Part shown: one piece after another, positions 369-22,461 of the stretch | Numbering within the stretch: position 1 is the stretch's first letter | How the letters are laid out: each line of letters opens with the position of its first letter | Assembly: GCF_018494065.1 (NCBI RefSeq) | Contig: NZ_JABBFR010000001.1 | Span: forward strand, 248,205 to 280,204 | Origin: Rosenbergiella gaditana | GTDB lineage: Bacteria > Pseudomonadota > Gammaproteobacteria > Enterobacterales > Enterobacteriaceae | Length of the DNA: 32,000 nucleotides | Direction: 5' to 3' | Notes under the pieces: generated by a model | Told to the model about the DNA's origin: nothing | Databases searched by the model: none | Seen by the model: only the letters and a program-made list of their open reading frames with translations | Position numbers and translations under genes: made by a program

Positions 369-372
369 TGTC

Positions 373-1530: not shown

Positions 1531-1708
1531 AGTAAACCCCTTGCTAACAGATAGGGGGATAGTTGCAACTTTTGTACCAATTTAAGTATTGACGTTTTTT
1601 TGGTTTCATTGGCTAGTATGGAAACTTCTCTGCCTTACGTCGGGGAGACTGTTGCACTGATAAAGGACATTGCACTATTGTAGGGATAACTTTTTAGGAG
1701 ACAGAGCA

Positions 1709-2203
1709 ATGAAAAAATTAAGGTTATCTGGACTCATATTGATCGGATTAAGCGTTTCAAGCGGCATATTCACTACTACAGCGCGTGCCAGTGAGCCACT
1801 TGAGGCTTATCCAACCTCTTTACCTGGGTTACAACGTCACGTTATTCAACTCCCCGTTCTCAACAATGAGGCCAACCAGCAGGTCGAACTGATTATTGGA
1901 AAAGAAGAGCAGGTGGACTGTAATGCGACATCGCTATTGGGGACACTGACTTCTGAAACAGTCAAAGGGTGGGGGTATGATTATTATCAGGTGAAGGTTA
2001 AGCCGGGACGAATCTCGACCAAGATGGCATGCTTGCCTCAAACGCTTCAGAAAAAATTTATCACATTACCTTTAGACACATCACAACGCTTTGTTCGCTA
2101 TAACAGTAAGTTACCCATTGTGGTGTATGCACCGCAAGAGTTAGAAGTGAAGTATCGAATTTGGCAGGCTAACACTACGATATCCACTGCTGAGCAAAAG
2201 TAA
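1709..2203 (+). CDS. eco: ecotin (periplasmic serine protease inhibitor)
   Basis: Signal peptide MKKLRLSGLILIGLSV.., an AGGAG RBS at 1696-1700, and ecotin hallmarks (VELIIGK..VDCN, GWGYDYY, MAC, RYNSKLPIVVYAP..EVKYRIW). I prefer the start at the internal ATG 1709 over the ORF-track start 1670. Confidence 0.9.
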   Translation: MKKLRLSGLILIGLSVSSGIFTTTARASEPLEAYPTSLPGLQRHVIQLPVLNNEANQQVELIIGKEEQVDCNATSLLGTLTSETVKGWGYDYYQVKVKPGRISTKMACLPQTLQKKFITLPLDTSQRFVRYNSKLPIVVYAPQELEVKYRIWQANTTISTAEQK

Positions 2204-2206
2204 GCA

Positions 2207-2229
2207 GAGCGCCCTAAACTGGGGCGCTC
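2207..2229. terminator. hairpin between convergent eco and cytochrome c genes (candidate bidirectional terminator)
   Basis: GAGCGCCC-taaactg-GGGCGCTC, an 8-bp GC-rich stem. The flanking U-tracts are weak. Confidence 0.45.
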
Positions 2230-2237
2230 AATCGATA

Positions 2238-5338: not shown

Positions 5339-5629
5339 TGCTTCTTATAGTTATCGATATATTTTGCCGCCAAGGGTACCGATTTTCCACGCTGGGTTCC
5401 AGCCAGTCTGTGATAAACGTGACGCTTGAATACAATTAACCCCCAGGTTTAGAGAGTTTCGCTCAGTTTATGGGAGTGGGTGGAGATAGATTAGCATCGT
5501 TGTATAGGATTAATGACTGGAATTAACACTTTTATCACCTCGTTTTATCGTTCAAAAATGTTACCCTTTTAGTTCAATGATACGTCACTGTCGGTGAGGT
5601 ATCCCTACACCCTGCATGAGGAGTAAACC

Positions 5630-8929: not shown

Positions 8930-9203
8930 GAAGCAGCTTCCTAGAGGATCGGTTTGAAAACCGGAATCAGAAGGGCAATTGTCAAGGGCGCTCCCCAGCG
9001 GACAAGGACTGTTTCCTTTTTGGTCCCGAAAAAGATCTCGGCTCCAACTGTAAGAATTCAGAAAATCAGACTTGGAGCCGTTTCCAGAGCCGTTTGTCAT
9101 CCCACATCGAATGTTTTCATCAGCCATCCTATAACCGCCAAAAGAAAAACAGCTACACCGATGAAAACCAGCTCTACACCATTTGTATCGTTACGCCTAG
9201 TGT
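8930..9203 (-). pseudogene. decayed 5'- and 3'-truncated copy of the prophage membrane-protein gene (homologue of 13838..14269)
   Basis: The nucleotide sequence aligns by eye with 13990-14262 at high but imperfect identity. Translated in the homologous frame it lacks a start codon and has in-frame stops (e.g. APSLIF*ILTVGAEIFFG, PIL*EAA). Confidence 0.75.
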
Positions 9204-9309
9204 TGATTCTGGTTCGTCTGGAGAAACGGGTAACGTAGAATCACTGTGATAGTCGCCAGTTAACGACCAGAGTCAACGCTCGCCGCCAGATTCCCCCTGC
9301 ATTCGCATT
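9203..9309. repeat. att-proximal tail repeat, copy 1 (pairs with 20445-20552)
   Basis: TTGATTCTGGTTCGTCTGGAGAAACGGGTAACGTAGAATCA...GATAGT.GCCAGTT.ACGACCAG.GTCAACG occurs at both places. In each case it runs into a dif/dif-like XerC arm. Confidence 0.85.
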
Positions 9310-9337
9310 AGTGCACATAATGTACAACAATTAAAAA
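9310..9337 (+). other. degenerate dif-like Xer site 1
   Basis: AGTGCACATAA-TGTACA-ACAATTAAAAA. The XerC arm matches dif at 9/11 positions and the XerD arm is degenerate. Confidence 0.6.
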
Positions 9338-9346
9338 ATGTTATAA

Positions 9347-9892
9347 GATTTCGGTGCATCAGGTAAAGGTTACTCCGTTTCACAGGCTCCCGGTCTTTGG
9401 CGAATTTATGACACCGATGGTACTTTTGTCAGACTGGAAGAAGCGCCTTTAGAATCACCGCAGATTGAGCCGACTGATATTGCGTTACTCGCAGCAGGTG
9501 TTTTCCGCATTTTCTTTGCTAGCAGGGTGTTACTGCAAAGCGGAGTCAGAACGGCCATCACTGTAAAACTTAGTCAGAGTACGGTCAGTTTTCTACGTGG
9601 GCGATTGAAGGCGGGGTTCTCAGCTCGCAGTCTTAAAATGACAGAAACTGCTGCGAAGCACATGCAGAACCCCGGTCGCTATGTCCCTTTACAAATTCAG
9701 GAAAAAGCTATCCGTTATGGCAGACGAATGCCTGATCCAAAGAAAAAACCAGGGCTTTTTCGCTATGAGACTGAAATGTATAGACTTGTTGAGAACAAAC
9801 AAGCTAAAGGAACATATTATTACAAAAAGTATACTCTCGAAGTCCTTGTTCGTGAGAAAGACTTGACAATCAGTCATTTCCAGTATTTTTAG
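9347..9892 (+). CDS. orphan C-terminal toxin domain fragment of a polymorphic toxin (DUF4258-like putative RNase)
   Basis: The frame is open from the stop at 9344-9346, immediately after dif-like site 1, with no ATG (the ORF track uses GTG 9527). The tail TETAAKHMQNPGRYVPLQIQEKAIRYGRRMPDPKKKPG resembles the H..R..(G)I....I..G...DP pattern of small CdiA/Rhs/WapA-type C-terminal nucleases. A small acidic ORF follows directly. Confidence 0.4.
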   Translation, partial: DFGASGKGYSVSQAPGLWRIYDTDGTFVRLEEAPLESPQIEPTDIALLAAGVFRIFFASRVLLQSGVRTAITVKLSQSTVSFLRGRLKAGFSARSLKMTETAAKHMQNPGRYVPLQIQEKAIRYGRRMPDPKKKPGLFRYETEMYRLVENKQAKGTYYYKKYTLEVLVREKDLTISHFQYF

Positions 9893-9900
9893 AGGTAATT

Positions 9901-10329
9901 ATGATTGATATTGAAGTTGGGATACTGAAATTTCAACTGTCACCTTATGAAAGAGAACATGCCGAAGAGGACCTATCAGACGACTCGATAAAGACGTTTG
10001 TTGAATATAAGCTGCCAGTATTAACGACACAGTACAGCACTGCATTTACGGTTCCTGAACTTATTGAGTTAAAGAAAGAAATTCAATCTTTCTATGAAGG
10101 TCTGATTAAACAGGAGCCTCGTCCTGATATATTTTTTGACAGTTTAGAACATCATTTTAGTTTACAGTTCAGGCAAGTTAGTCATCATGATATTGCAGAA
10201 GTAAATATTGTGATGAAACCAGAAGATAATGCAGACAGTGTCAAAGTCACCGACACATTTTATCTTGACCAGAGCTACTTTCCGGCGTTGCAGTCCGGCC
10301 TTGACGAGATGATTAACTGGCAAAACTGA
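9901..10329 (+). CDS. putative cognate immunity protein (WapI-like pattern)
   Basis: 142 aa, acidic, and starts 8 nt after the toxin stop. The C-terminal ..FYLDQSYFPALQSGLDEM.. resembles the DQSYL motif I recall for WapI-family immunity proteins. Confidence 0.5.
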   Translation: MIDIEVGILKFQLSPYEREHAEEDLSDDSIKTFVEYKLPVLTTQYSTAFTVPELIELKKEIQSFYEGLIKQEPRPDIFFDSLEHHFSLQFRQVSHHDIAEVNIVMKPEDNADSVKVTDTFYLDQSYFPALQSGLDEMINWQN

Positions 10330-10352
10330 CAGGAATAGCTTGTCTGCGCACT

Positions 10353-10380
10353 GGTGCGCATAATGTATGACGCTATGTCA
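10353..10380 (+). other. dif-like Xer site 2
   Basis: GGTGCGCATAA-TGTATG-ACGCTATGTCA. The XerC arm is perfect. The XerD side is degenerate, but a better XerD-like CTATGTCACAA lies 3 nt further on. Confidence 0.65.
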
Positions 10381-10395
10381 CAAAAGGGTTCTGAG

Positions 10396-10427
10396 CCATT
10401 CCGGTAGAATGGGGTTTACCGGAATGG
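10396..10427. repeat. perfect 11-bp inverted repeat (hairpin)
   Basis: CCATTCCGGTA-N10-TACCGGAATGG. Confidence 0.7.
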
Positions 10428-10532
10428 GGAGGGTTCGTTTATAATAAAGCGAATGAGTTAGAACTCCATACTGTACAGGGGTTGTAAGCGGGAACCCGCC
10501 AAAATTTTGTGGCGTCTGCCATTCTTAAGCTT

Positions 10533-10808
10533 TCAGCCTGATGACAGTGTCAGTCCGTCAATCATCGCGTCCAGATCGATCTCTTTCCCTTCAGTGATAA
10601 AAGTGTAATGCCCGTTTAAAAAGATATGCTGCCATGCGACGGGCGACATCCGTTTGAGGAACTCCAGCCCCCGGGTGTTACCGGTTGCTTCATATCTTTG
10701 CAACAATCGCGATAACAGGGCTGAGTTATAATAAATAATCACGATGCTGAGTAGCCGGCCACACTGATTGCTGATTTCGAGCTCTATGTCATTCTGGCCC
10801 GTCAGCTT
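10533..10808 (-). pseudogene. tnpA: Tn3-family transposase, C-terminal ~92 codons only
   Basis: ..LLSIVIIYYNSALLSRLL...LKRMSPVAWQHIFLNGHYTF matches the extreme C-terminus of Tn3-family TnpA. The frame is closed by a stop at 10809-10811. Confidence 0.75.
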
Positions 10809-10859
10809 CTATCAATGGTACGGTATCAATCTCTTTGATGGCCCCTCAAACGTACATTT

Positions 10860-11220
10860 ATGACTGAAATACGCATTGGCTATGCACGCTGCTCTACTGA
10901 CCGACAGGACCTGGCCGCACAGCAGGAAGCCCTCGTCAGCCTGGGCGTCTCCTCGGACCGAATTTATACCGAACGTGCTGGCGACGTTTGCCGAGTTTGA
11001 AGGTGATCTGATACGTCTGCGTACCAGAGAAGGTATGGCTATCGCCAGAGCAAAAGGCAAGCTGAAAGGTAAACAGCCAAAATTATCAGAGAAGCAGCAG
11101 CAGGAACTGTGTCGTATGCACGGTAGAGGGGAACATTCTATCAGTGATCTGGCAGAACTGTTTTCAGTATCGCGGCCGACCGTTTACCGGACGCTTATAC
11201 GAGGCAGAGAAAAGCAGTAA
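10860..11220 (+). pseudogene. tnpR: serine recombinase/resolvase with internal deletion and frameshift
   Basis: The N-terminus MTEIRIGYARCSTDRQDL (catalytic Ser region) in frame 0 stops at 10998-11000. The C-terminus VLATFAEFEGDLIRLRTREGM...SVSRPTVYRTL (HTH) continues in another frame. About 70 central residues are missing. Confidence 0.8.
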
Positions 11221-11246
11221 TCATTTTATTTAAACAAGGACGAATT

Positions 11247-11729
11247 ATGGCTCAGGATATTTTTATAAAAATTGATGGTATCGAAGGTGAATCTCAGGAT
11301 TCCACCCATAAAGGAGATATTGAGGTACTTAACTGGGACTGGTCCGTTAGTCAGACATCAAATATGCATTCTGGTAGTGGTGGAGGGGCGGGAAAATGTA
11401 CTGTTGAGGATTTTCATTTTGAGCACTATATCGACAAATCCAGTACTAACCTTCTTCAGTATTGCCTGACCGGAAAGCATATTCCCGAAGCAGTATTAAC
11501 AGTCAGAAAAGCGGGCGGCTCACCGCTGGAATATCTGCGCATTACCCTTCAGGAAATTATCATCACCGCCGTACATCCTGTTTATTACAACACCATGCGT
11601 GTACCACGCGAGGCGGTAAGCCTGGCGTTCTCCAGAGTACAAATGGACTATGTGTTGCAGAATGCAGAGGGAAGTACAGCAGGTACGGTTTCCATGGGAT
11701 ATGACATTAAAGCCAATGCAGCTATTTAA
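11247..11729 (+). CDS. hcp: type VI secretion tube protein Hcp (TssD)
   Basis: 160 aa. IFIKIDGIEGESQDSTHKGDIEVLNWDW...GGGAGK....DF.F.HYIDKSS..L...C..GKHI is the canonical Hcp1-family N-terminus. Confidence 0.9.
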   Translation: MAQDIFIKIDGIEGESQDSTHKGDIEVLNWDWSVSQTSNMHSGSGGGAGKCTVEDFHFEHYIDKSSTNLLQYCLTGKHIPEAVLTVRKAGGSPLEYLRITLQEIIITAVHPVYYNTMRVPREAVSLAFSRVQMDYVLQNAEGSTAGTVSMGYDIKANAAI

Positions 11730-11756
11730 GTACAGGCAATATAAAGGAATATAATT

Positions 11757-12379
11757 ATGTTATTCGTTGATAAAAATGGTTTAGTGGATGCAGAGCGAAT
11801 TATTGTCAAGCGATTCAGTACAATAGAGCGTGGCAAGCTGGACAAAGTGAACGGGATAATCGTTCATCAGACTAACAGTCCGACAGCCCAAAGCACATTC
11901 AACAGCTACAATCAAACCTCAGCGAATGGCGCTCATTTTTTAATAGACAAAGACGGTAAGATTTATCAGACAGCATCTTTGTTAAAGTAACCTGGCATGT
12001 AGGATTGATGCAATCCAGATGCTTTTTGAAAAAAAAATGTAAACCAACAGAGGTTAATCTTTTGGCTTTACATACTAAAAGTTACTGGAAGAGAAAAATA
12101 TCTCAACAAATATCTGATATAGAAAAAGGGAAAGAATTTCCTGACCGATTCCCAGGCAATACCGATAGTATTGGAATTGAAATTGTTGGACTTGCTATTG
12201 ATGTTAAAGGTAAACCAGAGCCTGTCTATGAAGCGGTTAATGATAAACAAAATGATTCTCTTAGATGGTTGATTGCTGAACTTGCTTCAACATTCAAAGT
12301 TTCTATGACTGAAATTTACAGACACCCTGATGTAGGCCGGAAAAATGAAACAGAAGCGGGTACAGCAGAATGGAAATAA
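11757..12379 (+). pseudogene. PGRP/Amidase_2-type N-acetylmuramoyl-L-alanine amidase, putative Hcp-linked T6SS effector, split by a 1-nt frameshift
   Basis: ORF1 ends ..GIIVHQTNS...GAHFLIDKDGKIYQTASLLK*. The next frame reads KVTWHVG...NTDSIGIEIVG...ND.Q..SL..L...L......I.RHPDV...KNETE. Together these form one Amidase_2 domain. The break lies at TTAAAG (11982-11987). Confidence 0.7.
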
Positions 12380-12753
12380 AGAAGATAGTATTCCTTGTTT
12401 TTTTATTCATCCCCACATTTACTCAGGCAAGGGTAGTAAATGAGATAAATATAATGGAAACAGGTGCCTGGGATAGTGATAACAGAGCTGAATATGAAAA
12501 AGAAGGTTGCAAGACATTTAATCCGACTAAAGAACAACTAATCCAATATTTCTCTCAGGCTCAGGAATCATCCTCCAGTGGTAACTGGATAAATGAGTAT
12601 TATTCGCCTTGTATTGCATCTGGTAAAGTTACTTTTAAGGATGGAGATTCAGGTGCGTGGAGAATACATTCCAGTGGACTCGGATGGGTGGATTTTATTA
12701 ATAAAACAAGACGATATTTCTACTTTACTGACAATGATTGGGAGAAAGAATAG
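12370..12753 (+). CDS. secreted/periplasmic small protein, putative immunity to the amidase effector
   Basis: Signal peptide MEIKKIVFLVFLFIPTFTQA. The start overlaps the effector stop (ATGGAAATAA). Two Cys residues. The position is typical of T6SS peptidoglycan-effector immunity genes. Confidence 0.55.
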   Translation: MEIKKIVFLVFLFIPTFTQARVVNEINIMETGAWDSDNRAEYEKEGCKTFNPTKEQLIQYFSQAQESSSSGNWINEYYSPCIASGKVTFKDGDSGAWRIHSSGLGWVDFINKTRRYFYFTDNDWEKE

Positions 12754-12762
12754 ACAATACAT

Positions 12763-12785
12763 AAAGCCTGTTAAAAACAGGCTTT
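12763..12785 (+). terminator. rho-independent terminator after the immunity gene
   Basis: AAAGCCTGT-taaaa-ACAGGCTTT followed by a T-rich tract (TTTATTCAAGTTTTATTT). Confidence 0.7.
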
Positions 12786-13017
12786 ATTCAAGTTTTATTT
12801 AGAGCGACGTTTCACAATACGTTATGGTAAATCATAGGAGTGTAAAATGGCTGATGGTGAAAAGTTGACAGTTATATTGCCTGGCGAAATGCTGTGTTAC
12901 CTGAAATCTGTCTACCTGTAGCCTGAAAATTGACATCATTTCCTTGTAATAAGAATTCAGCACACAATCAGACCTAAGGCCGCAAGACATTTCAACTATT
13001 ATGCGTACCGTTATCTA

Positions 13018-13049
13018 GGTGCGCATAATGTCGACGCATTATGTTGAAA
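13018..13049 (+). other. dif-like Xer site 3 (left junction of the filamentous prophage) with extended central region
   Basis: GGTGCGCATAA-TGTCGACGCA-TTATGTTGAAA. The XerC arm is perfect and the XerD arm matches at 9/11, but the spacer is 10 bp instead of 6. An inverted XerC-like arm TTATGCGTACC lies at 12999-13009. Confidence 0.65.
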
Positions 13050-13050
13050 A

Positions 13051-13081
13051 GGCCGCTGCGAAAATATCTCCCGCAGCGGCC
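13051..13081 (-). terminator. rho-independent terminator of the antisense accessory operon
   Basis: GGCCGCTGCG-N11-CGCAGCGGCC, a 10-bp stem. On the minus strand it is followed by TTTTCAA. Confidence 0.7.
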
Positions 13082-13118
13082 TCTTTAGCATAATGTCATT
13101 GTGCGAACCAATTATTTA

Positions 13119-13463
13119 TTAATAATCATGACGACCTTGGCTCCGTTCAATTTCATCAATCATCGCATCAACATCTTGTTTAAATTGAAAGTTTAGATGA
13201 CTCCATCCGAAATCACCTGCTTCGTAGGTGAACTCATGCCCTTTTTTTGTTGTCAATTTAAAGAAGTAATCACCAGATCCATAACCGATTAGTTGAATGT
13301 CGCACCAGTAAAGATATGTTATGTCTAATACAGCCATGTCAGGCGAATTCATTTCAGAAAAAACATGCGCTTTGCTTGCACCCGGCACAGGCATATTGTA
13401 AATATACTCACCGCCATGTGCAGTTCTAACCTTTACTTTATAAACCCTTGATTTTTTAGCCAT
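13119..13463 (-). CDS. hypothetical soluble protein (prophage accessory gene 3)
   Basis: 114-aa ORF, last gene before the strong terminator. I recognise no motif. Confidence 0.5.
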   Translation of the reverse strand: MAKKSRVYKVKVRTAHGGEYIYNMPVPGASKAHVFSEMNSPDMAVLDITYLYWCDIQLIGYGSGDYFFKLTTKKGHEFTYEAGDFGWSHLNFQFKQDVDAMIDEIERSQGRHDY

Positions 13464-13482
13464 TTATGCCGCCGCGTTAATT

Positions 13483-13884
13483 TTATAAATCATTTCGCAT
13501 TGATTCTATTAGTTTATTAAAAGCATCGTGTCTTTCTTCTCTTGGTCCATCATTCGTATCGACAATTTTTTGCGAATAGTGGACGACCTGTTTTGAGCCA
13601 AACAAAGAACAATGCGTCTGCCATAGTGCATATTCTTTTGATGCTTCTTCCGATGGGGAAATTGCAGACTTGTGAATGGATGACAATAACCCTAAATATG
13701 CATTTCTTTTTTCTTCGTATAACCGTTCATCTTTTTTTGTTTTTTTATTTAAGAGGCTGGTAATGGCTGAATTTAACATAGTCCCTATCCCTAACCCCCC
13801 GATAACCCCTAATATAATGTTGTAATCCATACTATTATTACCAGTAATATGAATTTCTTCTGTGCCACCAATAAAGCAGCCCAT
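13483..13884 (-). CDS. hypothetical single-pass membrane protein (prophage accessory gene 2)
   Basis: TM segment YNIILGVIGGLGIGTMLNSAITSLL, then KKTKKDE and a helical soluble part. The real start may be ATG 13830 (M19), 7 nt after the upstream stop. Confidence 0.5.
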   Translation of the reverse strand: MGCFIGGTEEIHITGNNSMDYNIILGVIGGLGIGTMLNSAITSLLNKKTKKDERLYEEKRNAYLGLLSSIHKSAISPSEEASKEYALWQTHCSLFGSKQVVHYSQKIVDTNDGPREERHDAFNKLIESMRNDL

Positions 13885-14269
13885 ATCCTACAATAAGAAT
13901 CCCGAAGAACATCAGGGACATTCCCCAACCAGTTCCGTACCACGAAACCATATCATCGAAAACCAATCCGCCAACGTCACGAACTCCAGCAGCTTCTTTA
14001 AGGATCGGTTTGAAAACCGGAATCAGAAGGGCAATTGCCAATGGCGCTCCCCAGCGAACAAGGCCAGTTTCCATTTTGATCCCGAAGAAGATCCCGGCTC
14101 CTACTGCAAGAATCCAGACAATCAGGCTTGGGGCCGTTTCCAGAGCCGTTTGCCATCCAACATCGAATGTTTTCATCAGCCATCCTATAACCGCCAAAAG
14201 AAAAACAGCCACACCGATGAAAACCAGCTCTACACCATTTGTTTCGTTACTCCTACTCATCTCTTTCAT
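13838..14269 (-). CDS. hypothetical four-TM inner-membrane protein (prophage accessory gene 1)
   Basis: 143 aa with four hydrophobic segments. A decayed second copy lies at 8930-9203, so the gene belongs to the conserved element backbone. Confidence 0.6.
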   Translation of the reverse strand: MKEMSRSNETNGVELVFIGVAVFLLAVIGWLMKTFDVGWQTALETAPSLIVWILAVGAGIFFGIKMETGLVRWGAPLAIALLIPVFKPILKEAAGVRDVGGLVFDDMVSWYGTGWGMSLMFFGILIVGYGLLYWWHRRNSYYW

Positions 14270-14369
14270 CCTTTTTTTTGCATAGAAATTTTAGCCGCTA
14301 AAATTCTTCACATCGCCGCGAAGCGGTTCGGGGTTCTGTGACACCCGAACTTTGGTATGGATTCCCATA

Positions 14370-14585
14370 CTACCGATGATGCATTGTCATGATTTCCCGC
14401 TCGACTCGTGCTCTCTCGGTAAGCTCTTCTGCGGCTTCTTTTGCATAATCATCAATCAGATGATTAACAATGTCTGTCCATGAGATCTGTGATCCAGCCT
14501 TCTGACTGGCATCTATCGCCATCCTCTCCAGCTTCATCTTCCGCTCAGCAGTAATGGCCATTGTTGTTCTTTTAGGTTTTTGCAT
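14370..14585 (-). CDS. small ribbon-helix-helix-like DNA-binding protein, putative prophage repressor
   Basis: MQKPKRTTMAITAERKMKLERMAIDAS..ISWTDIVNHLIDDY fits a strand-helix-helix layout. It is divergent from gII across a repeat-rich region. I chose the start at ATG 14585 (AGGTG RBS). Confidence 0.5.
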   Translation of the reverse strand: MQKPKRTTMAITAERKMKLERMAIDASQKAGSQISWTDIVNHLIDDYAKEAAEELTERARVEREIMTMHHR

Positions 14586-14626
14586 TTGTTCACCTGGATC
14601 ATAGAAGGTCATTTGTATGTGAGTAT

Positions 14627-14715
14627 ACATGCGTACCAAATACCCATGCAGTTATGCTTGCATACATGCATTCACATGCGATGTTATTTTTTTACGGCAT
14701 ACATGCATACATGCA
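14627..14715. promoter_or_regulatory. ACATGC / TGCAT-AC-ATGCA repeat cluster between repressor and gII (operators and/or origin iterons)
   Basis: ACATGC occurs at 14627, 14664, 14674, 14701 and 14709. The palindromic unit TGCATACATGCA occurs at 14660-14671 and 14704-14715, with a near copy (G instead of the first T) at 14696-14707. Confidence 0.5.
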
Positions 14716-15844
14716 TAGGGGTTCTTGGGTGTTTTACGACTGGCTCTCGATTGAACAGGATTTTGGTTATCAGCTTCCTATTCTTGGTGATGTTGCATAT
14801 CAGCGCATTCACCTTGAAACGGGTGAGGGTAGCTCACTTTCCCAGCCAGTATTTCAGCATAAGGGTTCATTTTGCGATGTTGTCTCAGTCTCTATAAGAG
14901 GCTCGGTACTTAAGATTACGGGTAATCCTTCACGCTGGAACAGACTTGATAACCTTTTTGGTCTGACTTCTGTTGATGCTTGTGTCGCTGTTTATAACAG
15001 CATCCTCTTTGATTTGGGCTTACCGCCTTTTACAAAATGTACAAAAACTTTTTTTAGCCAAACTAAAGAGAATGAAAAAGTAACGCTTATTTCTGATGGT
15101 GCAATTATTCGTGAGCTACATATCACCTCAAATAAATCCACTGGAAAAGGCAATGAGGATGAATATATATCAGGCTTATCAACGCAACCTTATAGAAATA
15201 GTGTTCCTAGACTTCATAGTAATGGTAAGTCAGTTGATTCGTTGTCTAAAAAGGGTAATGTTAACTTAATATACCCGACTGTTTATAATAAAGGGCATGA
15301 ACTTGCATTACATTCCCTGACTAAAATAAAAAATAAATTTGGTTCTGATTCAGAGCAAGTGAAACATATTAATAAAGTAATTGAATATTGCGAAGAGAAT
15401 GGAATCGTTCGTTTTGAACAGAAATTAAAATCACGTTATTTGCAGAAAAATAATCTTTTATTCTGGGGGCTATCTGATTACTCCATATTAAACGAGTTAT
15501 ATAATACATTTTTGAATTTAGATGAAAAACTATCGGTGAATGCTATGGAATTTGAAACTATAAGCGAACATTTAATCTCACAGGGTATTGTTGATACGGT
15601 AAGAGCGGCTAATACAACTTCTATGTATGCCATTCAATGGTTTCATGGTCACTCTTTCGATTTTTCAAAGTCCGCTGTAAAGATTCATCGAGCAAGGCTT
15701 AGAAGAATTGGTATCGATATTGCGCAGCGCTGCAATGTAGCTAAGTTTTCACCTGTTATCACCAGAGAAGTCAGAGAAATTAAAGTTAAAGATTGTGTTA
15801 TTCCATCATGGTATTTGAAGCCATCACATGTAAAAGTTGCTTAA
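14711..15844 (+). CDS. gII: rolling-circle replication initiator (Ff gene II protein homologue)
   Basis: The position and the motif VRFEQKLKSRYLQKNNL (f1 pII: VRFEARIKTRYLKSFGL). The start is uncertain (ATG 14654, ATG 14711 or GTG 14729). Confidence 0.75.
   Translation: MHRGSWVFYDWLSIEQDFGYQLPILGDVAYQRIHLETGEGSSLSQPVFQHKGSFCDVVSVSIRGSVLKITGNPSRWNRLDNLFGLTSVDACVAVYNSILFDLGLPPFTKCTKTFFSQTKENEKVTLISDGAIIRELHITSNKSTGKGNEDEYISGLSTQPYRNSVPRLHSNGKSVDSLSKKGNVNLIYPTVYNKGHELALHSLTKIKNKFGSDSEQVKHINKVIEYCEENGIVRFEQKLKSRYLQKNNLLFWGLSDYSILNELYNTFLNLDEKLSVNAMEFETISEHLISQGIVDTVRAANTTSMYAIQWFHGHSFDFSKSAVKIHRARLRRIGIDIAQRCNVAKFSPVITREVREIKVKDCVIPSWYLKPSHVKVA
15545..15844 (+). CDS. gX: putative pX (in-frame internal start within gII)
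   Basis: Internal ATG at SVNAMEFET.., collinear with the f1 pX start (GDSMNIYDD). This is an inference by analogy only. Confidence 0.35.
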   Translation: MEFETISEHLISQGIVDTVRAANTTSMYAIQWFHGHSFDFSKSAVKIHRARLRRIGIDIAQRCNVAKFSPVITREVREIKVKDCVIPSWYLKPSHVKVA

Positions 15845-15856
15845 TGGAGATATGTA

Positions 15857-16135
15857 ATGATTAAAATTGAAATTAAACCATCACAAGCTGTAGCCGACAC
15901 TCGTAGCGGTGTATCTAAAACAACTGGCAAAGCTTATACGATCCCTGAGCAATCAGCGTATATTTTCCTTGGTGGTGACTATCCACAGATGTTCAAGATT
16001 AATCTTGAGAACGGACAACCTCCATATCCGGCAGGGCTTTACTCTCTTCATGAGTCCAGTATTTATGTAGGTGACTTTCAAAAACTAAGAGTCGGAAAAA
16101 TAGTACTTGTCCCTTATCAAGATTCATCTAAGTAG
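15857..16135 (+). CDS. gV: ssDNA-binding protein (Ff gene V protein homologue)
   Basis: MIKIEIKPSQA..TRSGVS...GQPPYPAGLYSLHESS..VGDF compared with f1 pV MIKVEIKPSQA..TRSGVS...GQPAYAPGLYTVHLSS..VGQF. Confidence 0.9.
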   Translation: MIKIEIKPSQAVADTRSGVSKTTGKAYTIPEQSAYIFLGGDYPQMFKINLENGQPPYPAGLYSLHESSIYVGDFQKLRVGKIVLVPYQDSSK

Positions 16136-16144
16136 ATTATTAAT

Positions 16145-16231
16145 ATGGATGAATTAACCCAGATTCTTATAGCATCCGGTATTGTCATTTCTTTTGGGCT
16201 AGGAGCAATAACGGCGGGGGTACTTCGCTAA
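16145..16231 (+). CDS. gVII: minor coat protein pVII-like (28 aa)
   Basis: Not in the ORF track. MDELTQILIASGIVISFGLGAITAGVLR is a hydrophobic mini-protein at the Ff gVII position, and its stop overlaps the next start (TAATG). Confidence 0.6.
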   Translation: MDELTQILIASGIVISFGLGAITAGVLR

Positions 16232-16326
16232 TGTATATTGCCTATTTCTTTGGGGCTTATGCCTTTGGCTTAGCTCTTTTCTATGCGGTCGGTTCATTTA
16301 AATCATTAACTGACCGTCTAATGTAG
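16231..16326 (+). CDS. gIX: minor coat protein pIX-like (31 aa)
   Basis: Not in the ORF track. MYIAYFFGAYAFGLALFYAVGSFKSLTDRLM is a hydrophobic mini-protein at the Ff gIX position. Confidence 0.6.
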   Translation: MYIAYFFGAYAFGLALFYAVGSFKSLTDRLM

Positions 16327-16355
16327 TTTTCTATGTAATCAATGGAGTTATTTTT

Positions 16356-16595
16356 ATGAAAATCTTATCTACCGTAAAATCAAAAATCGCTGTTGCTTCA
16401 ACTGCACTTTTTGTTTCTGCAAGCTGTTTCGCAGCGGGTGAAGGTGCATCTACTGATTATGCCGGGCAGGCTATGGACTCTCTGTTAACTCAGGCTAACG
16501 ATCTTATTGCTAAAGTCTGGCCTGTTGTAGTCGCTGTTGTCGGAGCTGGTCTGGCTATCCGTCTTTTCAAAAAGTTCTCCTCAAAAGCTGTTTAA
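16356..16595 (+). CDS. gVIII: major coat protein (pVIII homologue)
   Basis: Signal peptide ending ..CFA. The mature part has an acidic N-terminus, a hydrophobic core and the basic tail [12 protein letters not shown] (f1: IKLFKKFTSKAS). Confidence 0.9.
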
Positions 16596-16603
16596 TATCT
16601 ATC

Positions 16604-16622
16604 AGGGGCACTTGCTGCCCCT
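16604..16622 (+). terminator. terminator after gVIII
   Basis: AGGGGCA-cttgc-TGCCCCT followed by TT. This is the same position as the Ff post-gVIII terminator. Confidence 0.55.
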
Positions 16623-16642
16623 TTAAATTAAAGCGGGCCATT

Positions 16643-17872
16643 ATGAAAAGGGAAATATTATTTCTTTCCGCTCTTTGTTTACCTTCATTTTCACATGCTG
16701 ACTCATGGGAAAGCGTTTCTAAATCTACCTATCAAAGCTCTGCATATTCAGAAAGCAAGCAAATAGTAAATCAGGATGGTACTCAAACCACTGTATATTA
16801 TATTGATGCCGCTATGCAGTCCTCAGCTTGTCAGGCTGCTAAAGACAGTGCTAAAAGTGTATTTGAACAGGTCAAAGTAACCTATCAGGGCGTTTGGCCT
16901 GATTCTGAATTTCGTCTCGTTACGGCTGATGCTTGTACTTATAATGGTTCTCCCGGCCAGCAAGATAAATTCTGGTCTTTAGCTGCTTATATCGTTGGCG
17001 ATATTCAACGCACTATTCCCGATGAAAAACCTTCCGAACCTACGCCAGAAGAAATTTGTGAAGCAAAACCACCTGAAAATGGTGTGTTCAATAATGTCTA
17101 TTCTGATTCTGGTGATCGTTATATTTATTATAATGGCTGCGAGTACGAAGCCACTGGCGTTATTGTTTGCCAGAGTGATAGCTCTGTTTGCGCTGCAACG
17201 TGGAAGCCAACCGGAACGGTAGCGGACTCATCCGATAAACCTTCTTCTCCTGCTGGCGATGGCGGTGACACCGGAGGAGATGAGGCGGATAGTGGCGATA
17301 ATGGAGGTAGCGATACAGGCGGCAGTTCTGGCAGTAGTAATGGTTCAAATCTTACCAAAGATGATATTCAGTCAGCTATGGAGGGCGCTTCGCCTAAAGT
17401 CGCCAGTGAAATTTATGACAAGCTAACGGAAAAAGATACCTCATCTGATGATAAAAAAACGTCTGATGAACAGACTAAAAATAATATAAATCGTCTTGGT
17501 GACTCTATAAATAATCTTACCCGTGGTGCTGCGCGTTTTGCTGACGCTTCCGGTGGTGACTCCCGTTATGGAAAAGGTGACTCTGAATTAGATAGTGCTT
17601 CAAATTTGGCAGAATCTGAATTAGGGATAGCTAAAGAATCTCATGGGGCATTATGGGAAGCATTTTTAAATAAAGGTGCGATGCTGCCTAATTTACCTAA
17701 TGGTAATGGTTGTTCTGACTTAATTATTTTTCCAGGAGAGGTTTATCAAATTGATATCGAATGCGATAAATTACTTTCTATTAAAGATGCACTTTCATGG
17801 ATCTTTTACTGCCTTACATTTTGGTATGTATTTACATCTTTAACTTCATTACTTCGTAAAGGGGATGAGTAA
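16643..17872 (+). CDS. gIII: minor coat/adsorption protein (pIII-like)
   Basis: Signal peptide, Cys-rich N-domains, a Gly/Ser/Asp-rich linker ([31 protein letters not shown]) and a hydrophobic C-terminal anchor. Confidence 0.8.
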
Positions 17873-18213
17873 TGCCTTTCTTATTGGGTATTCCAGCACT
17901 GTTACGTTTTCTTATTGGTCTTGTTCCTTTATTGATTGGCTATGTGGCGAGTTTTATTGCTCGCCTTGCAACTAAAACAGGGTTGATTGCTTTTGCACTT
18001 GTTGCATTAATTACAACTACTGTGACGCTCTTAATGCAATATCTTGCCGAGGTTATGTACAACGGTCTTCCTGCTGATTTTTCCCATTTAATGGCATCTG
18101 TATTACCTGACCATTTTCAGGCTTGCATTAATGTCATTATGGTTACTCGTATTAGTGTTTTCGTCTTCGACTTAAAACAAAAATTCCTTGATTATGCGAA
18201 TAGGGTTATATAA
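17872..18213 (+). CDS. gVI: minor coat protein pVI homologue
   Basis: [14 protein letters not shown].. compared with f1 MPVLLGIPLLLRFL... 113 aa, with a TAATG overlap with gIII. Confidence 0.85.
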   Translation: MPFLLGIPALLRFLIGLVPLLIGYVASFIARLATKTGLIAFALVALITTTVTLLMQYLAEVMYNGLPADFSHLMASVLPDHFQACINVIMVTRISVFVFDLKQKFLDYANRVI

Positions 18214-19308
18214 ATGGCGGTTCATGTTGTAACAGGTAAATTAGGCTCAGGTAAAACACTGGTCAGCGTGTCCAGAATACAGGAAAGATTAGCTAAGGGA
18301 TGTCCTGTTGCCACCAATTTAGACCTTAAATTACATAATATGCCGATGGTAGGTCGCTATGCAAAAAAAACGCGCGTCATTCGCATTCCTGATAAACCAT
18401 CGTTAAATGATTTATTGGCAATTGGCATAGGCAATACGTCTTATGATGAATCCCGTAATGGTCTTTTAGTGCTTGATGAATGTGGTACTTGGTTTAATTC
18501 CCGTTCATGGGGCGACAAGGATAGACAACCTGTTATTGACTGGTTTTTACATGCCCGTAAATTAGGTTGGGACATCATATTTCTCATCCAGGATGTTTCC
18601 ATCATGGATAAACAGGCGCGATTAGCTCTTGCTGAACATGTTGTTTATTGTCGTCGATCGGATAAATTAAATATACCTATTATTGGCTCTCTTATTAATC
18701 TTCTTTCAGGTTCACGTTTCTCTTTACTAAAGGTACATTTTGGTATTGTTAAATATGGCGACAATGTAAATTCAATCACTGTTGACAAATGGATATATAC
18801 TGGTAAATCTCTTTACTCCGCTTATAACACCAAGCAGACTTTCACAGACAATTATTCTCTCGGTGCTTACTCATATCTACCTCCTTTCATCACTCATGGT
18901 CAGTTTTCAGTTAATAGAGGATTTAAATACCATATGCGCCTGACGAAAATTTATTTTCGCAAATCCAATCGATTAATATTAATACTTTCATTTCTGATAT
19001 TGGGGCTTGGAATAGGTTTCTGGCTAAAATCCGAGGAGATTACTAATCAAACTTCGGCTATTAAATCTGTTAGAGCTGAACAGGCGAGGGCGGTAACGCC
19101 TAATAATGCCGATGATTTACCGAGACTTTCTATCAACTCTTTCACTCAACTTGGTTTTGATGTTTCCGTTACCTTTATTGATGCTAGGGGTATGAAATAC
19201 CAGTATTTTGATTTAATCAAAGATGGTTATTCCGTTGATATTAAAGATCCTTGCCGGATTGACATCAGAAAAGACCGTTATTTACAGACTGTAACTTGTC
19301 AGGAGTAA
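18214..19308 (+). CDS. gI: assembly ATPase pI (Zot family)
   Basis: MAVHVVTGKLGSGKTLVSV (Walker A), LLVLDECGTWFNSRSW, IDWFLHARKLGWDIIFLIQD and LAEHVVYCRR are nearly identical to f1 pI blocks. Confidence 0.92.
   Translation: MAVHVVTGKLGSGKTLVSVSRIQERLAKGCPVATNLDLKLHNMPMVGRYAKKTRVIRIPDKPSLNDLLAIGIGNTSYDESRNGLLVLDECGTWFNSRSWGDKDRQPVIDWFLHARKLGWDIIFLIQDVSIMDKQARLALAEHVVYCRRSDKLNIPIIGSLINLLSGSRFSLLKVHFGIVKYGDNVNSITVDKWIYTGKSLYSAYNTKQTFTDNYSLGAYSYLPPFITHGQFSVNRGFKYHMRLTKIYFRKSNRLILILSFLILGLGIGFWLKSEEITNQTSAIKSVRAEQARAVTPNNADDLPRLSINSFTQLGFDVSVTFIDARGMKYQYFDLIKDGYSVDIKDPCRIDIRKDRYLQTVTCQE
18934..19308 (+). CDS. gXI: putative pXI (internal in-frame start at Met241 of pI)
   Basis: MRLTKIYFRK aligns with f1 pXI start MKLTKIYLKK, at the same codon number. 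This is an inference by analogy. Confidence 0.4.
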   Translation: MRLTKIYFRKSNRLILILSFLILGLGIGFWLKSEEITNQTSAIKSVRAEQARAVTPNNADDLPRLSINSFTQLGFDVSVTFIDARGMKYQYFDLIKDGYSVDIKDPCRIDIRKDRYLQTVTCQE

Positions 19309-19315
19309 TATTACA

Positions 19316-20395
19316 ATGCGCTCACTTCTTATTGTTTTTTTATTTTTTTGTTCATTTTGTATTTCTGCTGAAACTGTTAATCTCAATAATTCATCTGTTC
19401 GTTCTTTTGTACAATGGTATTCATCAAAAACGGGTAAGCCCGTTATAGTTAATCCGGATGTTAAAGGAGCCGTGACAGTTTTTAATGCAGATGTAAATCC
19501 GACCAATATTGATGATTTTTTTAAATCAGTATTAAATGCCAACGGCTTTGTGATGCTTTCCGGTAATCCTGCTTTGGTATCTTTGCCGTCTAAACTACCA
19601 TCACAGATGGCGGCTGAACCAGATGATACAGATAATAATCTTTATGATGCCATACAATCCGATTCATCTTCTCAACCCGTTTCTGTGGCTTTTACCGTCA
19701 GAAATTTTAAGCTGACAAAAGTACGATCGTCTGATATTCAGCAACTGGTAAAAATTTACCTCGATTCTAATGGCGGGGGGAATGTCGTCGACTATCCCGG
19801 CAATAATTCGCTTCTCGTTTCTGCGCCGGACGAATTACTGCCAGTTCTGACTGATTTTATCAATTCCGTAGACGTTGCTCGTGATCAGGTTTTAATTCAG
19901 TCTCTGATGTTTGAAACCAGCTTGTCCGATGGTGTTGATTTGTCGTTTGCTGCGGGTTCTGCATCTGGGCATAAGGTAGCAGGGGGCTTTAATACTTCGG
20001 CGTTGGGTAGTGCATTGTCGACGGCGGGCGGCTCTTTTGGCATTTTTGATGGTAATGTACTGGCCTTATCCTTGCGTGCGGTACAGAGTAACTCCCGCTC
20101 TAAGGTGATTTCGACGCCCCGAATTCTTACCCAGTCTGGCCAGACCGGGTACATTTCTGTTGGTAAAAATGTACCCTTTATCACAGGCAAGGTTACGGGT
20201 GAATCCGCTGGGGTAAATAATCCATTCCAGACTATCGAACGTCATGATGTTGGCGTGTCTCTAAAGGTGACGCCTGTTGTCATGGGGAACGGTCAGCTTG
20301 TTCTTACGATTGATACCCGCGCTGACTCAATTAGCAATGATGAACAGGCATCCGATATTATTACTAATGATTTACCAACGATAAAGGGCGAGTGA
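19316..20395 (+). pseudogene. gIV: secretin pIV homologue, C-terminally truncated
   Basis: Collinear with f1 pIV up to ..ADSISNDEQASDIITN (about 20368), e.g. NVPFITGKVTGESAGVNNPFQTIERHDVGVS. It then diverges (DLPTIKGE*) and lacks the final secretin-domain segment (f1: QRSIATTVNLRDGQTLLLGGL...). Confidence 0.75.
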
Positions 20396-20444
20396 TGGGA
20401 TGAACAAGCCTGAGTGGTGAAGTCAGGCCGTTCATTTACTGCAT

Positions 20445-20552
20445 TTGATTCTGGTTCGTCTGGAGAAACGGGTAACGTAGAATCATCATCGATAGTAGCC
20501 AGTTGACGACCAGTGTCAACGAATCACGGCACATTCCATCTACATGCGCATT
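20445..20552. repeat. att-proximal tail repeat, copy 2 (pairs with 9203-9309)
   Basis: See copy 1. This copy ends ...CATGCGCATT immediately before the dif XerC arm. Confidence 0.85.
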
Positions 20553-20580
20553 GGTGCGCATAATGTATATTATGTTAAAT
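20553..20580 (+). other. dif: chromosomal dif site (XerC/XerD dimer-resolution site)
   Basis: GGTGCGCATAATGTATATTATGTTAAAT is a 28/28 match to the E. coli dif consensus. Confidence 0.9.
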
Positions 20581-21156
20581 TGCATTTGTGGTTTATAAGT
20601 CAGTTATTTTACCCTAGCTCCTATAGCCGCTTCGTCATTCCTTAGGTTCTATTCAAGCTATCGTTAACGCCACCCTATTCACCGAATACTGTACTTCGCC
20701 CAATGAGCTTTCTCAGTACGCAATTGTTGATATAGAGAATTACTCAACGAAAAATTTCTTTGAACCTCTAATGGACAAGTTTACTGCGCTGGAAGATAAT
20801 CCAGTGAGTGAACCTTGACATGATAGTTTTTCAGTTTCCGGTATTGGCGACAAGTTACCCTATAACTCGACTCAAGTAACAACACGCGCTAAAGGCTTTA
20901 ACCTGTCATGCATTTTTTGTTTAAGGTAAATTTAACAAACCATATTTGGCTAAACGCTTTACTGTAAAACCTGCGTCATTCTTCATTAGCATGACAAACG
21001 GGATTATAGAGTGCGTGTTTGATAAACTCGCACTGATAGTCAACAGTATTTTGTCGTACCAAAGATATTGACTGAAGTGGATACGCAAGTAAGAACGCCT
21101 ATACCTCCTATTCTTTAGGATCCTTGCCCTCCCCTAACGATCCTTTAATAGTAGAG

Positions 21157-22461
21157 TTACCCTAGTCGAGCAATACGTTGTCGTGCATCAGCTAAATGCG
21201 TCGCTAATGCAGTAAGACAAGGCATAAAATTATCGGAGAATTGATTACACTCGCGGGCCAGCCTTAAAAACTCTTCAGCCATTTGCAGTGCCTCGTGCCA
21301 ACTCAGTTCGTCAATCGTATCAAGTAAAGTAGCTGGTCGTAGCGTATTTACCCGTTCGCCTCCTGATTTCGGCGCAAAGCCCATCGGTAGCATATCGTAA
21401 GCCGGTGCGAGCTGGTAAGGCCGACCATGATCACTGATAAAAGATAAATTCCCATGGTGCATATCGGTGTTACCGATCAGTACACCAAATGCCCAGAGTT
21501 TTGCCGCTTCTTGCACCGCGCTGGGAACAACATGTTGCTGGGTGGCGAGCTCTTTAACGAGATTTGGCCAAGGCTCTCTGGCTCGTCCAATAAATTCCGC
21601 CTCCAACGCGCGTAATGAGAAAATACCTATCCGGCCAAGTTCATTTTGGCGATCAAAGCGAGGAATTTCTAAAAATCGTTGTGTGCCTAAATCAATCACT
21701 GTCGTTTCAACACCCAGCACCTGTAAGGCCAAATGCTCAGCCAATAGCAGATCACGCCAACGTTCACTCACTGGATTATCTTCCAGCGCAGTAAACTTGA
21801 CCAGTACATGACCGCGTTCGCTGTAAGTACAGAATTTAGGTTGCTCTCCACCTGCTGATGAGCCTGGTACCTCGCCCGAACTGGTCGATAAGGCAAGTTG
21901 CGGATAGTGCTGGTCACGGTCTATCGGTCTAGGAATTGGCATCGCTAAAAATTGTGTTTTCGCCCTTTCACCAATCAATAAGTTACCCACGCTATCATGA
22001 CCATGGACTAATAAGGCTCTAATCACTTCGTCGTCTTGCCAATCTTCCGGATTCGATGACAAGCGTAACTCAGTTGAAAAAGCCGCCGCAAACGCACGGC
22101 CAAGATAACCTTGCGGTCGCATATCAAATAGCCACCAAGGCAGTCCATCACTATGGTTTGCTCTCCCATCAGCTTGGTGCATCACAAATCCATGCGGGTA
22201 TACCGGAATGAGGTTACCCAACAATCTGATTTTTCCTTGGTCAGAAATTCGGTAGATCGGTGCAATACGAAACCCACGATAAGGATGTATTAAGGCGTAA
22301 TGAATAGAAGGCCCTGCACCTATTCTGATAATTTCACTCTCCATGCTTTTAAGTGCACGAGAGAGCGTTGGCTGACTAACCTTAATATTATCAGTAAGTT
22401 GCCTAACCGTCATTGGCGATTGTTGAAGGTAATAACGTATGGCTTCTGCGCGATTTTTCAT
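21157..22461 (-). CDS. HipA-family Ser/Thr kinase with fused N-terminal HTH (YjjJ/HipH-like)
   Basis: The N-terminal MTVRQLTDNIKVSQPTLSRALK is an HTH. HipA motifs follow: SSAGGEQPKF, PRFDR, GNTDMHHGNLSF, APAYDMLPM. Confidence 0.8.
   Translation of the reverse strand: MKNRAEAIRYYLQQSPMTVRQLTDNIKVSQPTLSRALKSMESEIIRIGAGPSIHYALIHPYRGFRIAPIYRISDQGKIRLLGNLIPVYPHGFVMHQADGRANHSDGLPWWLFDMRPQGYLGRAFAAAFSTELRLSSNPEDWQDDEVIRALLVHGHDSVGNLLIGERAKTQFLAMPIPRPIDRDQHYPQLALSTSSGEVPGSSAGGEQPKFCTYSERGHVLVKFTALEDNPVSERWRDLLLAEHLALQVLGVETTVIDLGTQRFLEIPRFDRQNELGRIGIFSLRALEAEFIGRAREPWPNLVKELATQQHVVPSAVQEAAKLWAFGVLIGNTDMHHGNLSFISDHGRPYQLAPAYDMLPMGFAPKSGGERVNTLRPATLLDTIDELSWHEALQMAEEFLRLARECNQFSDNFMPCLTALATHLADARQRIARLG

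Follow-up and report, generated by a model that had tools for sequence, protein, structure and literature searches.

The chromosomal dif site of Rosenbergiella gaditana S61 is preceded by a row of dif-like sequences that enclose interbacterial-competition genes, a transposon relic and a filamentous prophage, which raises the question of how such an assembly came about. It ends at position 20580 of the 32,000-nt stretch of DNA that we analysed (the window) and is divided here into four consecutive parts: module A (8932-9320), module B (9321-10363), module C (10364-13017) and prophage D (13018-20552). An original prediction, made from the DNA letters, had described a head-to-tail array of modules bounded by XerC/XerD sites. 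We consider it probable that the array formed by accretion of Xer-integrated elements (IMEXs) at chromosomal dif, that these were mainly CTX-type filamentous phages, and that they have since eroded. The order of events, the catalysis by Xer and the present frozen state of the array are what we infer from the sequence.

The dif-like sites provide the framework for this reading. A search of the window for GGTGCGCATAATGT, allowing up to two mismatches, gave four matches, all on the + strand, where shuffled sequences led us to expect 0.35; none of 100 shuffles reached four. The matches at 10353, 13018 and 20553 are exact, and the one at 9310 has two mismatches. The predicted set of four same-orientation sites, the last of them a perfect dif, was therefore recovered. 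The last site (20553..20580, + strand), GGTGCGCATAA-TGTATA-TTATGTTAAAT, is of the functional type and agrees with the E. coli-type dif at 28 of 28 positions, which occurred in none of the shuffles. For the inner sites, only part of the original parsing stands. The XerC arms are as described, but the assumed 6-nt spacer disappears when XerD arms are scored with the spacer length allowed to vary. Site 10353 then consists of a perfect XerC arm, TGT and a best XerD-like arm CTATGTCACAA (7/11) after a 9-nt spacer, while the best XerD-like arm of site 13018 is TTATGTTGAAA (9/11) after a 10-nt spacer. Site 1 (9310..9337, + strand) is a degenerate hybrid, AGTGCACATAA-TGTAC..., with no credible XerD arm (best 5/11). 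In addition, two inverted half-sites had been overlooked. One lies on the minus strand at 13099-13109 (GGTTCGCACAA-tgaca-TTATGCTAAAG) and pairs with the 13018 site in a hairpin. The other is a XerC-arm-like GGTACGCATAA on the minus strand at 12999-13009, 8 nt left of the 13018 site; together, these two sites form a near-palindrome of two XerC arms.

Could the inner sites be chance or convergent look-alikes without any recombination history? We regard this as extremely improbable. XerC-arm-like 11-mers with two mismatches are common, at a mean of 7.4 per shuffled window. However, two of the inner sites match at 14 of 14 positions, compared with the 0.35 sites expected even when two mismatches are tolerated, and all lie on one strand. 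Each inner site also stands exactly at a homology boundary with dif-integrated elements of other genomes. The site counts and the homology boundaries together already refute an origin by chance. The dead hybrid sites record past insertions, and the locus is a clean example of such a record.

The surrounding genes place these sites at the dif locus of the chromosome, as had been proposed. In R. nectarea and in a related metagenome-assembled genome (MAG), the same genes flank a single good dif: those for an SDR protein and acetolactate decarboxylase on one side, and yjjJ with the genes for a TPR protein, a glycosyltransferase and an MFS transporter on the other. Because of this shared setting, the window corresponds to the chromosomal dif locus of the genus; the gene adjoining dif on the right encodes the HipA-family YjjJ, whose sequence agrees at 100% with a protein of Rosenbergiella sp. 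S61. The comparison with relatives that had been suggested thus returned the shared dif interval, but the array content differs wholly among the three genomes compared (S61, R. nectarea and the MAG), and the MAG has a bare dif. FtsK-orienting polar sequences (KOPS; GGGNAGGG) are found twice on the + strand left of dif and once on the minus strand to its right. This fits the terminus, but three motifs are not above chance. GC skew across the 32-kb window is uninformative.

Prophage D is the best preserved element of the array. Its left junction (attL; 13018..13109, + strand) has the form of a CTX-type phage attachment region (attP), with GGTGCGCATAA-TGTCGACGCA-TTATGTTGAAA, a loop and the inverted GGTTCGCACAA-tgaca-TTATGCTAAAG. 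As a single strand, the sites at 13018 (+) and 13109 (minus) form a forked hairpin in which the arms pair and a central bubble stays unpaired (-28.6 kcal/mol, z -8.5). The same hairpin architecture (z -8.0) occurs in E. coli F11, where two tandem prophage copies lie beside hipA, and the inverted second site is located about 90 nt on in both hosts. In F11, GGTGCGCATAA-TGTACGACTCG-TTATGTTGAAA is present both at the left junction and between the tandem copies, which identifies it as the phage attP. No integrase domain was detected by Pfam in any open reading frame (ORF) of 13018-20552. D thus combines the three features of a CTX-type prophage: a position at dif between a left hybrid and a right intact dif, an attP hairpin built from inverted sites, and inovirus genes without an integrase. 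VGJ-type integration, which uses a double-stranded attP and is reversible, was considered for D and rejected on account of the inverted second site, the hairpin and the published classification (PMC4246890).

The gene block of D (13119..20395) begins with leftward accessory and regulatory ORFs (13119-14639, minus strand). Rightward, it continues with pII (14654-15844; Pfam G2P), pV (15857-16135; Phage_DNA_bind) followed by small ORFs, pVIII (16356-16595), pIII (16643-17872; G3P_pilus-bind), pVI (17872-18213), pI/Zot (18214-19308; Zot) and a C-terminally truncated pIV secretin (19316-20395; Secretin). A conserved phage right-end region (20398..20552, + strand) then runs into the phage-borne XerC arm and aligns with module A, with the right end of an element in E. 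coli 3-72, with Erwinia tracheiphila and with a relic in R. nectarea. Relatives of D are found in about 900 E. coli genomes, the best at ~82% DNA identity, and several of these dif-prophage matches begin at window position 13011/13018 and finish at 20580-20588. One top match is ECONIH2, a case study in the paper on the UPphi phages (PMC7307601). Identity to Erwinia phage PEar1, I2-2 and IKe is 66-68% at the DNA level. By its genes and junctions, D is classed as an IKe/UPphi/CUS-1/Ypf-like inovirus prophage. In its pIV, only positions 1-99 of the 169 in the secretin profile are matched, and the protein is joined to the tail of the following ORF, which marks D as defective. With the secretin C-terminus gone and no tandem partner, D is probably unable to produce phage.

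How would such a phage have entered, and what would it have left behind? In the model we favour, two inverted dif-like sites of the single-stranded phage DNA fold up as a forked hairpin, a mimic of dif. XerC would exchange one strand pair with dif, aided by the TGT common to both next to the XerC arm, and replication would complete the insertion. The left junction would then be a dead hybrid, made of the host XerC arm, the phage spacer of 9-11 nt and the phage XerD-like arm. On the right, the XerC arm of the phage would rebuild a working dif at which the next element could land. This footprint of XerC-first integration, a left hybrid together with a regenerated right dif, had been predicted for the locus and is supported by the same kind of junctions at the tandem prophages of E. 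coli F11 and at a 3.9-kb E. coli element. A single-strand exchange by XerC that is completed by replication and irreversible is what we infer from the site architecture and from published work, in which YpfPhi and CUS-1Phi are tabulated with CTXphi as phages that use a hairpin attP, XerC first and replication, irreversibly (PMC4246890).

The same footprint can be followed leftwards into module A. Its relic (8932..9309) consists of a fragment of a gene for a 143-aa membrane protein (8932-9199, minus strand) and a phage right-end region (9203-9309). The first part is 91% identical to 13988-14255, the corresponding membrane-protein gene of D, and positions 9203-9243 are 100% identical to 20445-20485 at the right end of D. 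Module A can be aligned in register to the right end of D and to that of the E. coli element as far as site 9310, the counterpart by homology of the dif that closes D. DNA folding predicts no hairpin to the right of site 9310 (z +0.6). By these alignments, module A is identified as an internally deleted older relative of D; it would be the deletion remnant of an earlier arrival, and D the last. The left junction of A is lost, as orthology with Erwinia sp. OLFS4 ends at 8788. In R. nectarea, two degenerate XerC arms and a 230-bp relic with both ends of the same phage as D (17599-17900 of its own stretch) precede a perfect dif, an illustration of how far the erosion of an array can go. The GGTACGCATAA arm variant is also present in this relic, there in direct orientation.

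Module C opens with the end of another phage. Site 2 and an attP-hairpin remnant of a second inovirus lineage ('IMEX-2') span 10353..10470 (+ strand), with the inner stem alone kept. Positions 10349-10443 are 88% identical to the left end of the 3.9-kb element, which is carried by E. coli 3-72 and by seven further genomes of this species (eight in total), six being mouse isolates. In E. coli 3-72, the element (12002-15895 of its stretch) lies beside hipA between a site of the site-2 type and dif, and its hairpin folds with z -6.8. It carries a gene for a protein of 481 aa and part of the one for the 143-aa membrane protein, with no genes for replication or assembly, and may be either a satellite or a relic. 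A left junction of the site-2 type also occurs on an IMG/VR viral contig with pV and pIV homologs, and another bounds a 724-bp relic in a metagenome contig. The homology of this junction to a dif-bounded element and to the viral contig with pV and pIV suggests that module C began as a second inovirus lineage. Since module A, too, is a phage relic, the earlier statement that only the last module is a phage does not hold.

The second phage would then have been invaded by a Tn3-family transposon. The relic of the transposon (10478..11220; PF01526, PF00239, PF02796) starts with a terminal inverted repeat (IR; 10478-10529, GGGG...TAAG), which begins 8 nt past the attP remnant and is 100% identical to one in E. 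tracheiphila. It is followed by the tail of tnpA (10533-10742, minus strand) and an internally deleted tnpR (10860-11220, + strand). A Tn3 element with a passenger has two IRs enclosing tnpA, tnpR and the passenger; here, we find one IR, the tnpA tail and the deleted tnpR, and no second IR in the window.

The genes behind tnpR form the second competition cassette of the array. They encode a full-length Hcp (11247-11729, + strand; PF05638, positions 1-129 of 129), an Amidase_2 effector (11757-12379, + strand; PF01510 in two pieces) and a putative secreted immunity protein of 127 aa (12370-12753, + strand). What had been read as an in-frame stop in the amidase is a 1-nt frameshift near 11982, within a T/A-rich stretch (11978-11990). 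The frameshift is in the deposited assembly, since nr lists the fragment as a protein of 123 aa, in an entry of R. gaditana; it could still be a sequencing error. By gene content, the cassette shows the hcp-effector-immunity arrangement of a type VI secretion system (T6SS) auxiliary module, with the effector frameshifted here. Across the locus, the original gene calls hold: the inovirus genes, Hcp, Amidase_2, the WapI-like immunity gene of module B, the Tn3 transposase tail and the resolvase fragments.

The hcp/Amidase_2/127-aa unit occurs with identical spacing in LUAb1 and Pantoea agglomerans, at 70-72% DNA identity over window positions 11234-12781, and the cassette is also carried on Erwinia rhapontici plasmids. 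No dif-like sites were found near it in Pantoea, LUAb1 or the Erwinia plasmids. Among E. coli genomes, the cassette has no DNA match, and a plasmid search returned no plasmid with Tn3 and the hcp cassette together. Since the cassette lacks dif-like neighbours in other genomes and sits after the Tn3 resolvase remnant, it was probably not delivered by Xer. Of the original description, the genes and the Tn3 scars are retained, and the status of a Xer module is not. The homology block of the cassette opens 14 nt after tnpR, in the position of a passenger, and the cassette would most simply be a transposon passenger or an unrelated insertion, having arrived by transposition or by another non-Xer event. 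As a cargo of the second inovirus, it was considered and rejected, given that the attP remnant is separated from the cassette by the Tn3 end and that the homology starts only after tnpR.

Module B contains a 1-kb toxin-immunity cassette. The toxin gene (9347..9892, + strand) is an open frame without a start codon, from which about 45 N-terminal codons are gone. It is followed by an intact WapI-like immunity gene (9901..10329, + strand; 142 aa; PF24716, E 1e-13), which always lies 3' of the toxin gene in homologous loci. The 112 homologs of the toxin are nearly all stand-alone proteins of ~224 aa, within a range of 177-256 aa and with a single one of 316 aa. No homolog belongs to a large toxin; they are found in Erwinia, Pantoea, Serratia, Enterobacter, Citrobacter, Yersinia and others. 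These homologs exclude that the ORF is the C-terminal end of a large CdiA/Rhs/WapA-type delivery protein, displaced from it, and what had been called an orphan toxin-CT is instead a 5'-deleted gene for a stand-alone toxin of that length. An AlphaFold model of the toxin (pLDDT 78.8) contains a confident C-terminal domain, whose only good match in the PDB is 5i4q_A, the CdiA-CT tRNase from E. coli NC101 (prob 1.0 and TM 0.62, though with an E of only 0.016). A sequence search for solved structures gave no match for the toxin or for the amidase of module C. Module B is likely a toxin-immunity pair with a tRNase-like toxin, as judged from the predicted fold. Two assignments of positions 9335-9350, as the promoter region of the toxin gene and then as a fragment of a phage accessory ORF, were set aside, the similarities being too short to decide.

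Does this cassette travel with dif? The original prediction had implied so, and there are signs that it does. On a contig assigned to Salmonella enterica serovar Lisboa by exact identity of its other proteins, the pair recurs at 96.3% DNA identity over 1003 nt, with flanking genes unlike those of the window. The same tgcgcact-GGTGCGCATAA junction follows the stop codon, and there it continues as a perfect dif; no clear dif-like site is present left of the cassette on this contig. In Serratia plymuthica, the WapI-like gene is directly followed by a pseudo-dif (9137-9164 of its stretch), 5.4 kb ahead of the true dif (14579-14606). The right boundary of the cassette thus coincides with a XerC arm or dif in Rosenbergiella, Salmonella Lisboa and S. 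plymuthica, at a fixed distance of 23-25 nt. In E. tracheiphila, the pair has a remnant of the phage right end immediately to its left, and a CUS-type attL and a dif-like site to its right. By contrast with these dif-associated copies, the pair of Citrobacter koseri is inside an integrase-associated island, and 56 IMG/VR contigs with the pair have no inovirus genes or dif-like sites nearby. A metagenome scan for the right junction of module B found no match.

Taken by their sequence context, these copies identify the cassette as mobile cargo of several kinds of prophage that in some lineages abuts an IMEX-borne XerC arm, and the near-identical Salmonella copy indicates a recent exchange between bacterial families at the XerC-arm position. 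In the accretion model, module B would be dif-proximal cargo of a phage, or the residue of a phage that kept its cargo only. This toxin-immunity cassette, which abuts dif and seems to travel with such sites, is the one modestly new element of the locus.

Two side observations concern the same cassette. In the window, the toxin gene is cut at 9368, before GYSVSQ, within 3 nt of the position at which it is cut in a pIV::toxin fusion fragment of Kosakonia oryziphila (10208-10211); this fragment is near guaBA beside IS66, away from dif. Either a recombination hot spot or common ancestry would explain the shared cut point. In S. plymuthica, regulator and oxidoreductase genes lie between the pseudo-dif and the true dif, whose left flank, atccttaccca, resembles the right end of a CUS-like phage. 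The interval may be another dif-bounded block, with metabolic cargo.

The behaviour of the cassette calls for weighing a different view, in which modules B and C are autonomous Xer modules, chromosomal equivalents of pdif modules or of small non-phage IMEXs, that are moved by XerCD, with dif serving as a collecting platform for competition genes. The position of module B against dif in a different bacterial family, amid unrelated flanks, speaks for it, as does the XerC arm at a fixed distance in three genomes. Very small attL-dif elements also exist, such as the 724-bp relic of the metagenome contig and the 230-bp relic of R. nectarea; however, with both phage ends kept, they resemble deletion relics. 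Moreover, the inner sites, all in direct orientation, either have spacers of 9-10 nt or lack a XerD arm, the hcp cassette is without dif-like neighbours elsewhere, and module B is also cargo of non-inovirus prophages. On balance, we consider autonomous modules unlikely.

In Acinetobacter pdif modules, to which the array had been likened, the sites are complete (XerC-6 nt-XerD) and alternate in orientation, and the modules are located on plasmids (partly PMC5790767). In both cases, short cargo units are parted by Xer-type sites, but the sites here are co-oriented, chromosomal and keep the XerC arm alone. As the inner sites have neither usable XerD arms nor 6-bp spacers, the resemblance fails on site completeness and on orientation.

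A bolder variant takes the 1-kb toxin/WapI cassette with its own XerC arm as a minimal dif-targeting mobile unit. It could be a miniature IMEX, or CTX-type phages could pick it up and export it again when rolling-circle replication runs across array neighbours. We hold this to be improbable as well; if it were true, dif arrays would be a general device for the capture and spread of interbacterial toxin-immunity genes across Enterobacterales families.

Several observations weigh against accretion at dif as the account of the whole array. The missing left junction of module A prevents reconstruction of the start of the array, and the left end of module B has no recognisable XerD arm or hairpin. 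Most toxin/WapI homologs on viral contigs are in prophages without inovirus genes or dif-like sites, so that the cassette is not exclusive to Xer elements. In the absence of a second IR, the hcp cassette is only a putative passenger. Finally, the right end of module C (12782..13017), which holds the inverted GGTACGCATAA and ends with the 9 nt CGTTATCTA abutting the 13018 site, matches no known IMEX and has no match in E. coli genomes or plasmids. The same CGTTATCTA forms the 9 nt left of dif in the related MAG, a native-looking flank. Either one IMEX-family end was kept in both genomes, or the 13018 site is an ancestral half-site, in which case modules A to C could not have entered by successive integration at a regenerated dif.

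The second of these options can be developed into an alternative history. The ancestral chromosomal half of dif would be the XerC arm at 13018 together with the flank to its left, only D would be Xer-integrated, and module A, module B and the start of module C would be an older or foreign array placed there by non-Xer events, such as a Tn3 rearrangement or deletion, or homologous replacement from another strain. The chance of finding CGTTATCTA identical at this fixed position is ~4e-6. A Tn3 end lies inside the array while the other is missing, and in Erwinia sp. OLFS4 a Tn3 element is located beside the same M20 peptidase gene. Yet the homology to the flank of the MAG extends over 9-12 nt only, and its local-alignment z is only 3. 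The XerC arm of the MAG, GGTTCGTATAA, is of the type carried by IMEXs, and the flank of the MAG may be an IMEX remnant, too. None of the mechanisms tested places a co-oriented array left of a native flank. This history therefore appears doubtful to us, and accretion of Xer-integrated elements remains our preferred explanation.

Compared with known systems, the array belongs to a type of structure that is already described: dif arrays with cargo, and relics that retain their cargo, have been published. The gonococcal genetic island (GGI) is a chromosomal, dif-bounded cargo of non-phage nature, as found here, and its excision has been shown. Such non-phage IMEXs have fuller dif-like boundaries; the inner sites here are half-sites, from which excision is not expected. 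The EcloIMEX/EludIMEX carbapenemase islands of Enterobacter likewise carry non-phage cargo between a dif-like site and chromosomal dif (PMC11138976, PMC5357621), and the vgrG effector-immunity clusters of Neisseria subflava, flanked by dif sites, share the T6SS effector-immunity cargo (PMC10210955). The Vibrio IMEX arrays described in 2025 (PMC12715192) are similar in their mixed dif-targeting elements, in attachment-side cargo that includes defence and T6SS-related genes, and in degraded relics that keep cargo. They belong to another bacterial order and to other phage lineages, and the hcp cassette here seems transposon-borne rather than phage-borne. The Vibrio arrays with cargo, the N. subflava clusters and the EcloIMEX elements weaken the earlier claim that the arrangement is undescribed.

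Among phages, D most resembles CTXphi/RS1 of Vibrio cholerae, YpfPhi of Yersinia pestis and CUS-1Phi of E. coli (PMC4246890; PMC4266046), which also lack an integrase, carry an inverted dif-like pair that folds in single-stranded DNA, and integrate at dif so that the left junction is a dead hybrid and the right one a regenerated dif. CTX-type IMEXs also form tandem and mixed arrays, as seen here (PMC4246890; PMC4266046). Unlike those examples, the host of D is a nectar-associated member of the Erwiniaceae, its structural genes are IKe/I2-2/PEar-like, and its secretin is truncated, with no second copy in tandem. D and the UPphi phages of Enterobacterales (PMC7307601) are alike in that their gene order is IKe-like, they integrate at dif, and the accessory ORFs adjoining dif vary. 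UPphi tandem copies differ from each other; D differs from UPphi in its DNA identity of only ~82% and in its accessory genes. The hcp cassette has its closest counterparts in the hcp-linked T6SS auxiliary cassettes of Erwiniaceae, the unit of hcp, Amidase_2 and a small secreted protein being conserved in Pantoea, LUAb1 and the Erwinia plasmids. The copy here is set apart from these by its frameshift and by its position behind a Tn3 resolvase remnant inside a dif array.

The locus extends CTX-type (hairpin-attP) inovirus integration and the decay of the resulting arrays to Rosenbergiella, a genus of flower- and insect-associated Erwiniaceae. It also provides a lead, in the toxin-immunity cassette that lies against a XerC arm in three genera and is near-identical between Salmonella and Rosenbergiella. 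Should the cassette truly move together with elements that target dif, competition genes would have a route of spread in filamentous phages. To our knowledge, such a role has so far been documented mainly for virulence and defence genes. For annotation, the locus is a reminder that cargo within a dif array need not be Xer-delivered: the T6SS cassette is probably transposon-borne.

The flanks of the array vary as well. On the left, a Tn3-family transposon with two resolvase/recombinase genes (109-5575 of its stretch) lies directly upstream of the orthologous M20 peptidase gene in Erwinia sp. OLFS4, which indicates that this neighbourhood is a transposon target in a relative. A search of genome contigs for the M20 peptidase returned only two short Erwinia contigs, neither with dif, and searches for proteins identical to the M20 peptidase, to Hcp and to the immunity protein gave no match. 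Within Rosenbergiella, dif is variable on both sides. In R. nectarea, three DUF1493 genes and a DUF8209 gene are found on the XerC side, and PIN, SMC-like ATPase and DUF2971 genes, which are defence-like, on the XerD side. In the window, a 56-nt piece of the yjjJ/hipA-like gene is duplicated in inverted orientation in the spacer between dif and the gene, with 91% identity between the copies (20769-20824 and 21751-21806). This repeat points to an earlier rearrangement on the XerD side of dif.

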